In this document: one piece after another, positions 13,749-16,736 of the stretch
How the letters are laid out: each line of letters starts with the position of its first letter
Numbering within the stretch: the first letter of the stretch is position 1
Origin: Pseudorhodobacter sp.
GTDB lineage: Bacteria > Pseudomonadota > Alphaproteobacteria > Rhodobacterales > Rhodobacteraceae
Length of the DNA stretch: 64,000 nucleotides
Assembly (NCBI GenBank): GCA_043721855.1
Contig: JAYSPY010000002.1
Span: 8,434 to 72,433, forward strand
Direction: 5' to 3'
Program-made: the position numbers and the translations under genes
The notes under the pieces: model-generated
What the model saw: only the letters and a program-made list of their open reading frames with translations
The model's database searches: none
Told to the model about the DNA's origin: nothing

Positions 13749-16736
13749 TCAATAGTCGCTTTCAATATAGCATTTGGCGATTTCGATGTTATCCGCCGCC
13801 GCCACCGCCCCATTTCGGCATTCACATTTGAACGCCAACCCCGTGTTCACCGCCGGAATATCGGTCGTGTAACTTGTGTCCAGCACCACCGCCCCGGTTT
13901 GCAAATTGATGATGCGAACAAATACCTCAGCAGTGTTTGGCTTTGCGTGCATCACCAGATCGTAGCCATCAATGGTATTGCGCGCGGCCCCGGTGCCCAG
14001 ATCCACCTTGGTGGCAACGCCTGTTCCGTCATTGCGCAACAAGAACCAGTTGCCGGTGCTAAGATCAGCCGCGTCATACCCCATGCCGATCATATTCAGC
14101 AGTGCCGATGCATCTGTCGTCAACCCGGCAGTAGATGCGCACAGCCCGACAAACTTTTGCCCACCTGCCAAGTTGATATTCATCCCCAGTTGCGCCCGGA
14201 AAAAGAAGCCGCCAAAGCCCGCGGTATTCCCCAAAAACCATTGGCCATAAGCGGTGCGAATGCCCGATGTTGTGCCGGCTGTGGTGCTGGTTTGAATGCG
14301 CGTGCGCCGGGTCGCCTGCCAACGGTTTGCCGAAGCAAAGGTCTGCTGGTGTGAAATCGTCACCGATGCCGTCAGCACGCCACCTGTGACCAAAGGAATG
14401 GTGGTGCTGATGGCTGGCGTTACCAAAAATACCGAATTGCCGTGTAGAGCCGTTTGCAGCTCGTATGGCTGGTTGGCAGCGGCCCGCAGTTTTGGCACCG
14501 CACGGCCAGCCGTCAAATTTGCATAAGCCAAAAGACCAGTGGCAGGTGCCGCAGGATCAGCGGTCTGAACCAGCTTCAAATTGCCCGTGTCAATTTCCAC
14601 ATTCGCGGCCCCGTCAAAGGCGGATGAATTGTTGAACTGCACTTTGCCAGACACGCCCCCCGGTGCACCGGCCGCTGGCGTGGCGAACGATCCATCCGCC
14701 CGCAGGAATGTTGTCGTCCCACCACCAGACGCGGGCACCAACCCCTTTAGCGCACTGGTAAACGTATCCAGCATCGCCGTCGTCTGCGTGCCCGTCAGAT
14801 CAAGCGGGTCACCCGCAACCCCTGTGTTATTTCCCTTGATTGTCGCCGCGTTCATATTGGCTAACTTGGCGTTGGTCACTGCATCATTGGCAATCGTGGT
14901 GGCATTGCTGCCGACAGGGGCCGTCACATCCCCGGTCAACGCCGCCCGCACCAGCGATGGCGTAGCATCCGTATATACCAGCGACGGGTTGACCATCGCG
15001 CCAATAGCATCCTGCGCCGCCTCGTCGAAGTCAGTCACCTGCGTAGACGGAATTGCAATCGCCACATTCGCCGCAGCCGTCGTCAACCCCTTGGCATTGA
15101 TGGTAAATGTCGGGATTGCTGTGGCCGCCCCAAAGGCCCCCACATTCGCATTCACGGTTGCAAGCGTCAGCGCGGTCGCCCCGGTTGCATCGCCTGTATG
15201 GGTGGCGTTGGTCACCTTGGCCGTGCTTGCCGCCACCGCCGCATTTGCCGCCACCGCCGCGTCAAAATCGCTGATCGTCGCGGCAATTTGCGTGCCTGTA
15301 TGGTTCGCGCGGGCCAAAAGCGTGGCATCTGCACTGTTTGCCGTAGCCCCGTTTGCCACGTTCAACATGGTGCGCGCCTGCGTGGCCGTCAAAGCCTCTG
15401 GCACGCCGGTACCTGCCGTGCTGCGCCCCAGGATCGAGGCTGTTGCCACGCTTGCCATCTTGGCCAGCGTCACCACGCCTGGATCAATCGCCCAAGCCGT
15501 GCCCGCACCAGTTACTGTGATATCGCCCTTGTCGCCGTCAGCAACACCAGCGCCCGCGCCAATTACCTGCGTAACACCCGCAGCCCGAACCTTGATTTCA
15601 CCCGAGGTGCTGTTGTGCCAGATCATCCCGTTCACCGGGCTGGCCGGATCACTGGCCTGCCCGCCCAATATCGCCGGGTTCGCCAGCGTCATCCGCCCAT
15701 TGGCCGCATCGGCGCTGAACACATCGCTAAACGCCGTGCCATCCGCACTGACCCGCAACGCGGTTGCATCGGTGCCAATCAGGCCAAACTGCGCCCGCGT
15801 GCTGAACCCGGTTTTCAACGCGATAGCCGCACTATCCCCCACCGCCGCCTTGTTCACCGTGGCCTCGACCCCGGCCCCCGCATGGTTGAACAATACCGCC
15901 GCCGCGTTGGCCGTGAACCCGCCCGAAAACACCTTCGCCCCGGTAAAAGTCTGCGCCCCCGCCAAAACCGCAATCTCACTGGTGGTATTTGGCAAGGTAT
16001 AGGTCCGTGTCGTGCCCGTGGTCAGCCCTGACAGCGAAAACTGCGCCACCTTGGTGGCGTCGCCCGCATCTTTCAGCGCAAATCCAGCGCTCGAAATTCC
16101 CTGCGGCAACGATACAATCCCACTTGCCGCCGCAACTGTCATCGCCGTGTTAAATGCTGATCCGGTGCCGCTGACTTTCAGCGAAAAATCATCCGATCCC
16201 GCCAAGCCCATTTCCGCCCGGCCTGAAAATCCGGTCTGAAACAGCAAACTGCCGGTATCCCCCACCGCCGCCTTGTTCACCTTCACCTGATGCCCGGCAC
16301 CCACGTTGGAAAACAGCGATGCCGTCGCCTGCACCGACAAGCGGTTCGTCGTATCTGCCGTGGCATTCACCCCGAAAATCGCGGCTGATGTCGGGGCGGT
16401 CGGCAAGCCCCAAGCAACACCCGCGTAAACCACCGTCACGCTTTCGGCCAGAACATGGGCCTGCCAACCCTGCAATGGCGCAAAGAACTGCCACCCCGTG
16501 CTGGTAAAAAGCGCTATTTTCCCAACCTGCCCGGCCCACGTGCCAACTGCGCCCGCCGCCACAATATGGCGGTCCCCGACCGATGGCAGCGCCGGGGCAG
16601 CGCTTAGATTGCGGTTCAAAACCGCAAGCTGCACCATCACATCCAACAGCCGCAGCGCCTCGTTATGGGTGACATGTTTTTGCGCCTGCGCAGGCATGAT
16701 CAGGGGCAAGGAAAGAATTGGGGATATATCGGGCAT
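13749..16736 (-). CDS. DUF2793-type phage / gene-transfer-agent-like tail fibre protein (orphan)
   Basis: N-terminus MPDISPILSLPLIMPAQAQKHVTHNEALRLLDVMVQLAV matches my recollection of the DUF2793 signature. The long Ala/Thr/Gly/Val-rich body has duplicated modules and fibre-type motifs (VTNAKLANM...GDPLDLTGTQ, FLRADGSFATP). Globular ~280-aa C-terminus. GGAGG sits 5 nt upstream of ATG 16736 (ORF track start 16757). Confidence 0.75.
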   Translation of the reverse strand: MPDISPILSLPLIMPAQAQKHVTHNEALRLLDVMVQLAVLNRNLSAAPALPSVGDRHIVAAGAVGTWAGQVGKIALFTSTGWQFFAPLQGWQAHVLAESVTVVYAGVAWGLPTAPTSAAIFGVNATADTTNRLSVQATASLFSNVGAGHQVKVNKAAVGDTGSLLFQTGFSGRAEMGLAGSDDFSLKVSGTGSAFNTAMTVAAASGIVSLPQGISSAGFALKDAGDATKVAQFSLSGLTTGTTRTYTLPNTTSEIAVLAGAQTFTGAKVFSGGFTANAAAVLFNHAGAGVEATVNKAAVGDSAAIALKTGFSTRAQFGLIGTDATALRVSADGTAFSDVFSADAANGRMTLANPAILGGQASDPASPVNGMIWHNSTSGEIKVRAAGVTQVIGAGAGVADGDKGDITVTGAGTAWAIDPGVVTLAKMASVATASILGRSTAGTGVPEALTATQARTMLNVANGATANSADATLLARANHTGTQIAATISDFDAAVAANAAVAASTAKVTNATHTGDATGATALTLATVNANVGAFGAATAIPTFTINAKGLTTAAANVAIAIPSTQVTDFDEAAQDAIGAMVNPSLVYTDATPSLVRAALTGDVTAPVGSNATTIANDAVTNAKLANMNAATIKGNNTGVAGDPLDLTGTQTTAMLDTFTSALKGLVPASGGGTTTFLRADGSFATPAAGAPGGVSGKVQFNNSSAFDGAANVEIDTGNLKLVQTADPAAPATGLLAYANLTAGRAVPKLRAAANQPYELQTALHGNSVFLVTPAISTTIPLVTGGVLTASVTISHQQTFASANRWQATRRTRIQTSTTAGTTSGIRTAYGQWFLGNTAGFGGFFFRAQLGMNINLAGGQKFVGLCASTAGLTTDASALLNMIGMGYDAADLSTGNWFLLRNDGTGVATKVDLGTGAARNTIDGYDLVMHAKPNTAEVFVRIINLQTGAVVLDTSYTTDIPAVNTGLAFKCECRNGAVAAADNIEIAKCYIESDY

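Follow-up and report, generated by a model that had tools for sequence, protein, structure and literature searches.

We analysed a 64-kb stretch of Pseudorhodobacter sp. DNA (contig JAYSPY010000002.1 of assembly GCA_043721855.1; hereafter the window, meaning the whole stretch) in which a tail-fibre gene with a DUF2793 domain lies at the edge of a capsule-type polysaccharide locus. The gene is a long, lectin-tipped member of the known family of rcc00171, which encodes the tail fibre of the gene transfer agent from Rhodobacter capsulatus (GTA; RcGTA). From its sequence and gene order it is best read as a positional ortholog of rcc00171. The gene and its parts are as follows.

13749..16736, minus strand: DUF2793 tail-fibre gene, 995 codons plus stop (13749..13751)
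16737..16828, minus strand: upstream intergenic region of 92 nt with a Shine-Dalgarno (SD) sequence and conserved blocks, a candidate promoter
16377..16736, minus strand: predicted baseplate anchor made of a helical rod and a small beta knob, residues 1-120, from Pfam DUF2793 and homology to PDB 8GTC chain S
16101..16376, minus strand: knob module copy 1, residues 121-212 (NRL..GAGHQ.K.NKA..DT.SLLFQTGFSGRAEMG...KVS), from identity to the R. capsulatus fibre
15540..15908, minus strand: knob module copy 2, duplicated internally, residues 277-399, which realigns to the R. capsulatus fibre
14709..15536, minus strand: Ala/Thr/Gly-rich shaft, residues 401-676, with two DUF5907-type repeats at about 401-460 and 601-676
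13752..14600, minus strand: distal tip, predicted ConA/legume-lectin-like beta-sandwich, residues ~713-995, from AlphaFold2 and Foldseek

The longest open reading frame (ORF) on the minus strand covers 13749..16757 and would give 1002 aa from its first ATG. This start (ATG at 16757) was dropped in favour of 16736, given that a GGAGG SD sequence at 16746..16742 is separated from the ATG of the 995-aa form by a 5-nt spacer, that all homologs start MPD..SPILSLP, and that the 995-aa product is the exact public gene call on three metagenome contigs; no public record of the 1002-aa form was found. An earlier note on this DNA, made from the letters and a list of ORFs, had described a DUF2793 protein of ~995 aa with a strong SD sequence of its own, and both statements were upheld; the N-terminal motif that it quoted corresponds to residues 5-37. 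The Pfam DUF2793 model (PF10983) matched residues 24-109 with E=4.8e-27 and 94.1 bits against a gathering cut-off of 27, spanning model positions 1-86 of 87. In PHROGs, phage families of unknown function were matched strongly, as was one 'tail fiber protein' family, and an NCBIfam scan of the fibre protein returned no match. The GC content, GC3 and codon composition of the gene were host-like, without a GC anomaly. The rcc00171 family has more than 1500 database relatives, mostly nameless or labelled DUF2793 alone, and the gene, taken by itself, is unexceptional: a well-conserved ortholog of a GTA component that has been characterised.

Modular architecture of the fibre protein

Residues 5-120 were matched by chain S of PDB 8GTC, the fibre of roseophage R4C (E=2.4e-12). 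The R4C baseplate is explicitly RcGTA-like, and its nine fibre copies form three trimers, attached by their N-terminal rods to the fibre-binding domain of the baseplate protein known as the megatron (PMC10276861). This R4C protein, gp17, which was deposited as 'Ribonuclease III', has a rod and knob homologous to those of the window fibre, by which its three trimers are held on the megatron domain of a C3 baseplate, and both proteins carry a lectin-like distal domain. R4C gp17 differs in its length of 230 aa, in being encoded by the phage beside its megatron, and in its foot, which is an 8-stranded barrel and not a ConA-like sandwich.

The second knob copy aligned to residues 137-207 of the R. 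capsulatus fibre at 45% and to residues 283-405 of RcKemmy gp22 at 49% identity, and it is missing from relatives of 855 and 824 aa, where the indel was mapped by pairwise BLAST. In the shaft, residues 422-453 and 620-651 hold the fibre-type repeats that the earlier note had pointed out, for which Pfam gave a weak DUF5907 match (E=6e-5), and the motif FLRADGSFATP occupies residues 677-687 within a segment of FLRADG motif and Gly-rich linker (677-712). An AlphaFold2 monomer model of residues 1-420 had a predicted local distance difference test score (pLDDT) of 47, which did not suffice for a fold search and is what a trimeric shaft would be expected to give. Near-identical relatives differ from the window protein by whole fibre modules: L004 has 90 aa more and L005 72 aa less of shaft, L006 and L007 are without the second knob copy (-140 aa), and one relative, P0053 (1497 aa), has the knob module about four times. 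These differences point to a fibre length that may vary via recombination between repeats. Low alignment coverage among close relatives was first read as swapping of C-termini; this reading was discarded when pairwise BLAST gave collinear ends with internal module indels.

The tip was modelled by AlphaFold2 as a two-sheet sandwich with a pLDDT of 83 and a predicted template modelling (TM) score of 0.82, in keeping with the distinct C-terminal globular domain of ~280 aa noticed earlier. In Foldseek searches, legume lectins and other ConA-like domains were the best PDB matches (E 1e-7 to 1e-6, target TM about 0.5-0.6), and the BFVD matches were distal domains of uncultured tailed-phage fibres (TMq 0.75-0.83, E down to 4e-28). 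Residues 455-715 of RcKemmy gp22 also matched the tip at the sequence level (31% identity, E=3e-20). The tip is presumed to be a receptor-binding, carbohydrate-binding domain. A tailspike depolymerase with a right-handed beta-helix, of the P22, TspA or Peptidase_G2 type, was considered for the tip and rejected, given that the model is a lectin/ConA-like sandwich. No pectate-lyase, Peptidase_G2 or beta-helix family was matched by Pfam in the fibre protein, of which residues 120-700 are without a confident model. The earlier note had proposed that the fibre may recognise or cleave the neighbouring polysaccharide. Recognition is favoured over cleavage because the predicted C-terminal domain is lectin/jelly-roll-like, and the Foldseek check gave no support to a depolymerase fold.

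Among phages of R. capsulatus, RcKemmy gp22 (716 aa) has a DUF2793 anchor and the knob module in common with the window protein and ends in a homologous domain that is ConA-like, and RcSaxon gp19 (575 aa) matches residues 4-393 of the window protein at 42%. Unlike the window gene, both come from complete phage genomes, in which they lie directly after a megatron homolog and have no polysaccharide-gene context; they are 31-49% identical to the window fibre. The R1 pyocin fibre (PDB 6CXB) and other lectin-tipped fibres offer a further analogy, drawn from Bardy 2020, in that they are trimeric and combine an N-terminal baseplate anchor and a shaft or knob with a saccharide-binding C-terminal lectin fold, but no sequence homology to R-type pyocin fibres was detected, and these belong to another anchor family and another baseplate type.

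In some relatives a small ORF lies directly 3' of the fibre gene. It encodes 137 aa in L008, L009, L011 and L033, and an unrelated product of 115-123 aa in L007, L015, L018 and L022; neither has a Pfam match, and both could be fibre chaperones or accessory proteins. Homology of these ORFs to the minor tail protein after RcSaxon gp19 was considered and dropped, as no similarity was found. The window has no small ORF downstream of the fibre gene, where manC converges.

Orthology to rcc00171 and genomic context of DUF2793 genes

Rcc00171 carries DUF2793, is encoded outside the RcGTA cluster and is essential for transfer, and the purified protein binds cells and blocks transfer (Hynes 2016, PMC5026251). 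The same study placed the RcGTA head-spike genes next to capsule genes and described the capsule as a receptor, so that the R. capsulatus facts given in the earlier note are all borne out. In the RcGTA structure Rcc00171 is a 371-residue tail fibre on the baseplate (Bardy 2020), and the R4C and RcGTA fibres both bind the megatron fibre-binding domain. Of 293 alphaproteobacteria that bear a GTA, 225 have the DUF2793 fibre family, whose evolution goes along with that of GTA genes (Kogay 2024).

A species-representative genome scan and ORF map gave the corresponding locus of R. capsulatus SP108 (L084). Its DUF2793 protein has 371 aa, as published for Rcc00171, and shares 56% identity with residues 16-209 of the window protein (E=2e-64). 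The SP108 gene lies directly after homologs of the KpsM-like (39%), KpsE-like (42%) and KpsT-like (56%) genes of the window, and homologs of its GT2 (40%) and RTX (32%) proteins are found nearby. Hynes 2016 (PMC5026251) placed rcc00171 'directly downstream of three predicted EPS synthesis genes' (EPS, extracellular polysaccharide), and we find these three genes to be homologs of the KpsM-like, KpsE-like and KpsT-like genes of the window. Because the Kps neighbours in SP108 match that description, we regard the window gene as a probable ortholog of rcc00171 by position as well as by sequence, and an rcc00171-type fibre gene, off-cluster and beside a capsule-type locus, is what the earlier note had proposed. 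That note had also taken the ligand-receptor linkage to be undescribed, which is incorrect, since Hynes 2016 had recorded the EPS genes beside rcc00171 and, owing to that neighbourhood, had assayed Rcc00171 for capsule/EPS lyase activity, with a negative result. What is new beyond that study is the scale of the linkage between fibre gene and sugar locus. The polysaccharide genes of the window are the following.

398..1492, minus strand: GalE
1740..4310: 856-aa GT2+GT1 protein
4307..5047: hexapeptide acetyltransferase
5038..5796: sulfotransferase-like protein, a weak match (Pfam E=6e-5, no NCBIfam match)
5803..6690, minus strand: KpsM-like permease (KpsM E=2.9e-23)
6562..7995, plus strand: KpsE/BexC/CtrB-family protein (E=3.5e-56), true start probably later
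7947..8648, plus strand: KpsT/VexC/Wzt-like ATPase (VexC/Wzt/TagH-like ATPases, E~1e-30)
8684..11128, minus strand: RTX calcium-binding repeat protein (HemolysinCabind), 814 aa
11274..12197, plus strand: GT2 glycosyltransferase
12237..13709, plus strand: ManC, GDP-mannose pyrophosphorylase/phosphomannose isomerase, convergent with the fibre gene, with 39 bp between the two

At family level, 398..13709 can be assigned to a group-2-type (KpsMTE) ABC-transporter-dependent capsule locus, the KpsM, KpsE and KpsT matches all being under the NCBIfam equivalog cut-offs and indicating family-level membership only. The label 'capsule island' used in the earlier note is a fair one. No KpsD/Wza-type outer-membrane exporter and no linker transferase KpsC or KpsS was present among the annotated ORFs at 1-13.7 kb, and the polysaccharide locus may run past the left edge of the window.

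Window and R. capsulatus fibre genes share a DUF2793 rod and knob, an off-cluster position and a locus with KpsM-like, KpsE-like, KpsT-like, GT2 and RTX genes, and for both proteins the predicted distal end is a tip that binds carbohydrate. They differ in length (995 versus 371 aa), the window protein having a duplicated knob and a repeat-rich shaft of ~280 aa beyond the plan of Rcc00171, and in the tip, a ConA-like sandwich of ~280 aa as opposed to a foot of ~112 aa without sequence similarity to it. Gene order also differs: the window gene occupies the outer edge of the locus, convergent with manC and, on its other side, after EamA, whereas the R. capsulatus gene directly follows kpsT.

The best 80 matches to the window fibre in species-level genomes were taken, of which 65 loci with a called DUF2793 ORF, not phylogenetically independent of each other, were counted. 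The viral control consisted of 59 viral-contig loci with a DUF2793 ORF, some of which could be GTA clusters. A nucleotide-sugar or polysaccharide gene lay within 6 kb in 46 of the 65 genomic loci and was the immediate neighbour in 29, counts that stand without a genome-wide null and come from a sugar query set partly derived from the same loci. Sugar genes made up 23% of the ORFs of the genomic loci within 2.5 kb, a share that dropped to 7% at 7.5-10 kb, and the query set scored on 0 of 44 window ORFs outside the island. No megatron, hub or tape-measure homolog was found within 10 kb in any of the 65 genomic loci. A megatron homolog was present in 57 of the 59 viral loci, and in 37 it ends upstream of the fibre gene at a distance under 400 bp; a sugar or RTX gene was present in none of the 59. 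In this comparison with the viral set, sugar genes were counted in 48 of the 65 genomic loci. In these sets, an orphan position in a sugar locus is the rule for genomic DUF2793 genes, whereas phage copies directly follow the megatron. The sugar loci beside the fibre gene are of at least three kinds (KpsMTE/ManC, Ugd/RTX/epimerase and rmlABCD). The linkage appears far more general than reported. Within a limited searchable set of literature we found no statement of a general pattern and nothing relevant that named rcc00168-170. Synteny around rcc00171 was described as kept only within genera (Hynes 2016, PMC5026251).

Two further observations concern the company of these genes. Plasmid ParA or RPA genes occurred in five genomic loci, all of the roseobacter group (L048, L051, L052, L060 and L079), where the fibre gene lies beside rmlA/B/C/D or manC; these contigs may be rhamnose-operon 'biofilm plasmids', and the paper on such roseobacter plasmids makes no mention of DUF2793, tail or phage. 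RTX proteins were encoded within 6 kb in 18 of the 65 loci, R. capsulatus included; their lengths are 480-1700 aa, and some have a protease domain of serralysin-like type. Loci with an RTX neighbour include L004-L007, L013, L019, L020, L022, L027, L028, L030, L033 and L084. The RTX-family protein Rcc00280 has been proposed as an RcGTA repressor (bioRxiv 10.64898/2026.07.19.739414).

The close relatives L004-L006 keep the order YebC-LysR-LysE-EamA-fibre-ManC-GT2-RTX-KpsT-KpsE-KpsM, and across the Tabrizicola/Cypionkella/Pseudorhodobacter clade, to which the closest named genomes belong (58-67% identity), LysR-LysE-EamA-fibre is followed by Ugd-RTX-epimerase. Ratios of nonsynonymous to synonymous substitution rates (dN/dS, omega) against three relatives were 0.07-0.13 for the fibre, 0.06-0.11 for the tip and 0.06-0.15 for five neighbouring genes. 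Purifying selection extended over all four fibre regions tested (omega 0.07-0.13), which indicates that the gene is maintained by selection and is not decaying. In cross-genus comparisons in which YebC stays constant at 85-87%, identity was 65-73% for the anchor and 64-68% for the first knob copy, and the tip was at 29-36% or replaced. Such steep divergence is the behaviour expected of a domain that would bind receptors.

Upstream of the gene, a comparison of the window with L004-L033 and L084 identified conserved blocks, namely GTTGCG (about -105), a GC-rich GCGCGCG (about -80) and a -10-like CTAG(G/T)GTC or CTAG(G/C)GTC (about -40), which are kept across genera whether the upstream gene is EamA, as in the window, FolD (L007) or kpsT (R. 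capsulatus). A promoter thus seems to travel with the fibre gene, and the blocks may be binding sites for GTA regulators. In R. capsulatus, CtrA~P and GafA trigger rcc00171, and CtrA half-sites were reported in its promoter (PMC9638019). Promoter and intrinsic-terminator scans of 13500-17000, the former with an E. coli-type sigma-70 model, remained at shuffle level (2 versus 1.3 and 5 versus 4.6, respectively).

Function of the fibre gene and rival explanations

We consider it likely that the window gene encodes the tail fibre, and so the receptor-binding protein, of a gene transfer agent of RcGTA type in a member of the Paracoccaceae related to Tabrizicola and Cypionkella. This reading is well supported by homology, synteny with a characterised gene, selection and the contrast in genomic context between chromosomal and phage copies. 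Several points weigh against it. The 64-kb window contains no head-tail cluster of a GTA and no megatron, gafA or ctrA. The tip is unrelated to the foot of Rcc00171, such that BLAST to the 371-aa protein ends at residue ~350 of a protein of 995 aa. The fold of the anchor is assigned by sequence homology alone, given the pLDDT of 47 for residues 1-420, and a degenerate TTCAG stands in the window where many relatives carry a TTAAC half-site. Furthermore, DUF2793 paralogs also occur in prophages and plasmids, and family membership alone is no proof of use by a GTA (Hynes 2016, PMC5026251). As to such a cluster, an RcGTA-like one was present in 21 of the 21 Rhodobacterales genomes examined by Hynes and also occurs in Stagnihabitans, a relative of Tabrizicola, and by analogy the prior is strong that this genome has one elsewhere.

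As a GTA fibre, the protein would trimerise, as the R4C and RcGTA fibres do, and its residues 1-120, by homology, would dock on the fibre-binding domain of a megatron encoded elsewhere. Duplicated knob and repeat shaft make the protein ~2.7x as long as Rcc00171 and would lengthen the fibre accordingly. At its end, the ConA-like tip would bind a carbohydrate on the recipient surface and orient the particle for DNA delivery. Judging from R. capsulatus, the gene would have a promoter of its own and be transcribed with the late GTA genes, controlled by CtrA/GafA.

It seems unlikely to us that the gene is instead a stranded prophage remnant, left beside the capsule island by a degraded phage with an RcGTA-type baseplate and without a role in a GTA. 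Polysaccharide islands are common hotspots for insertions and foreign genes, and the existence of phage homologs of the same architecture, RcSaxon gp19 and RcKemmy gp22, together with 561 relatives in viral contigs, would agree with such an origin. Phage-mediated transfer was inferred for some rcc00171 homologs by Hynes 2016 (PMC5026251). Yet the 64 kb hold no other phage gene, and no baseplate, megatron or morphogenesis gene adjoins the fibre gene as would be expected in a prophage. The position is kept across several genera, with homologous Kps genes flanking the R. capsulatus gene, and the omega values over all four regions argue for a maintained function. The host-like codon composition also speaks against a remnant, as does the lower identity of the closest viral-contig relatives (36-57%) compared with the chromosomal ones (58-89%).

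That DUF2793 genes so often lie near capsule, rhamnose or UDP-glucuronate genes (46/65) and RTX genes (18/65), in some loci on plasmids beside rml genes, would also suit a domesticated fibre-like lectin, a secreted or released protein that binds carbohydrate and organises or recognises the matrix. Its role would lie in the cell envelope or in biofilms, in connection with the capsule/RTX locus, and be independent of, or additional to, a GTA. The GTA-associated released protein TspA, which acts on biofilm matrix, sets a precedent (bioRxiv 10.64898/2026.07.19.739414), and purified Rcc00171 does bind cells and block transfer. We nevertheless judge this quite improbable, given that the megatron-docking N-terminus is the most conserved part across genera, a pattern for which it is difficult to account if there is no baseplate partner, that direct reading of the sequence shows no evident signal peptide in MPDISPILSLPLIMPAQAQKH, and that the ortholog is an RcGTA structural component essential for transfer. 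A host-encoded fibre borrowed by phages with RcGTA-type baseplates, or serving as a decoy against them, and not made for a GTA at all, is very hard to credit. R. capsulatus phages do carry the same baseplate module and anchor domain, and phage use of host GTA components was considered in the TspA preprint (bioRxiv 10.64898/2026.07.19.739414), but direct evidence is lacking, phages encode their own DUF2793 fibre beside the megatron (57/59 viral loci), and the same preprint describes the RcSimone-Hastad baseplate as thin, with no sign of borrowed TspA.

Building on the GTA-fibre reading, we put forward a broader proposal, speculative and, on present evidence, doubtful: the Rhodobacterales GTA fibre gene may have relocated from the head-tail cluster into capsule, EPS and nucleotide-sugar loci, on the chromosome or on rhamnose-operon plasmids, so that the fibre as 'key' and the polysaccharide as 'lock' would be inherited and exchanged as a linked unit, in a greenbeard-like manner. 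If this were true, GTA-delivered DNA would be confined to cells with the same cassette, and the window would pair a long lectin-tipped fibre with a KpsMTE-type capsule that is probably mannose-containing and acetylated or sulfated. A functional linkage would explain co-diversification of fibre and receptor. The linkage bears on the receptor of the RcGTA tail fibre and on the confinement of GTA benefits to kin, discussed by Kogay 2024, and points to candidate receptor loci, namely rcc00168-170 and neighbours in R. capsulatus and 398-13709 in the window. The idea that the fibre tip tracks the type of neighbouring locus was tried and set aside, given that the tip of L020, a locus of ManC/GT2/RTX type, is 30% identical, the same as in Ugd-type loci, in a comparison that is small and confounded by phylogeny.

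Other genes and observations in the window

To the right of the fibre gene, the window holds housekeeping genes: EamA, LysE, LysR, YebC, CitMHS, YmdB, Lhr, FolD, Fhs, CorA, FtsH, TilS, Tol-Pal, RuvABC, PrmA, MsrA, PriA, IleRS and others. No capsid, terminase, portal, tape-measure, lysis or baseplate gene was present among the ~50 annotated ORFs of the 64 kb, tblastn with a phage megatron gave no match in the window, homologs of hub and tape-measure proteins were likewise absent, and there are no tRNA genes in the window. The earlier note had stated that capsid, terminase, portal, tape-measure, lysis and integrase genes were all absent, which stands for all but the last. A single gene of the Phage_integrase family, with a SAM-like N domain, is found at 53773..54729, 37 kb from the fibre gene. 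It is XerC/D-like and directly preceded by a DUF484 gene (52994-53776), with priA nearby and housekeeping genes around it, which is the usual XerC/XerD arrangement and not that of a prophage integrase.

In the polysaccharide locus, the acetyltransferase and sulfotransferase-like genes (4307-5796) overlap by a few bases and are kept in relatives, and their presence suggests an O-acetylated, possibly sulfated polysaccharide. The longest ORFs of the KpsM-like and KpsE-like genes overlap by ~130 bp at their divergent 5' ends (5803-7995), and gene calls in relatives are shorter (268 aa for the KpsM-like and 409-414 aa for the KpsE-like protein); the true starts are probably internal, with a short divergent promoter region common to both genes. 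The 814-aa RTX protein is 80-89% conserved in close relatives. Three further stretches, 39028-40212, 42869-43492 and 61517-62173, have coding-like composition and no Pfam match at E<=1e-3, and the first of these, which lies between tolB and tolR/tolQ, is probably TolA.

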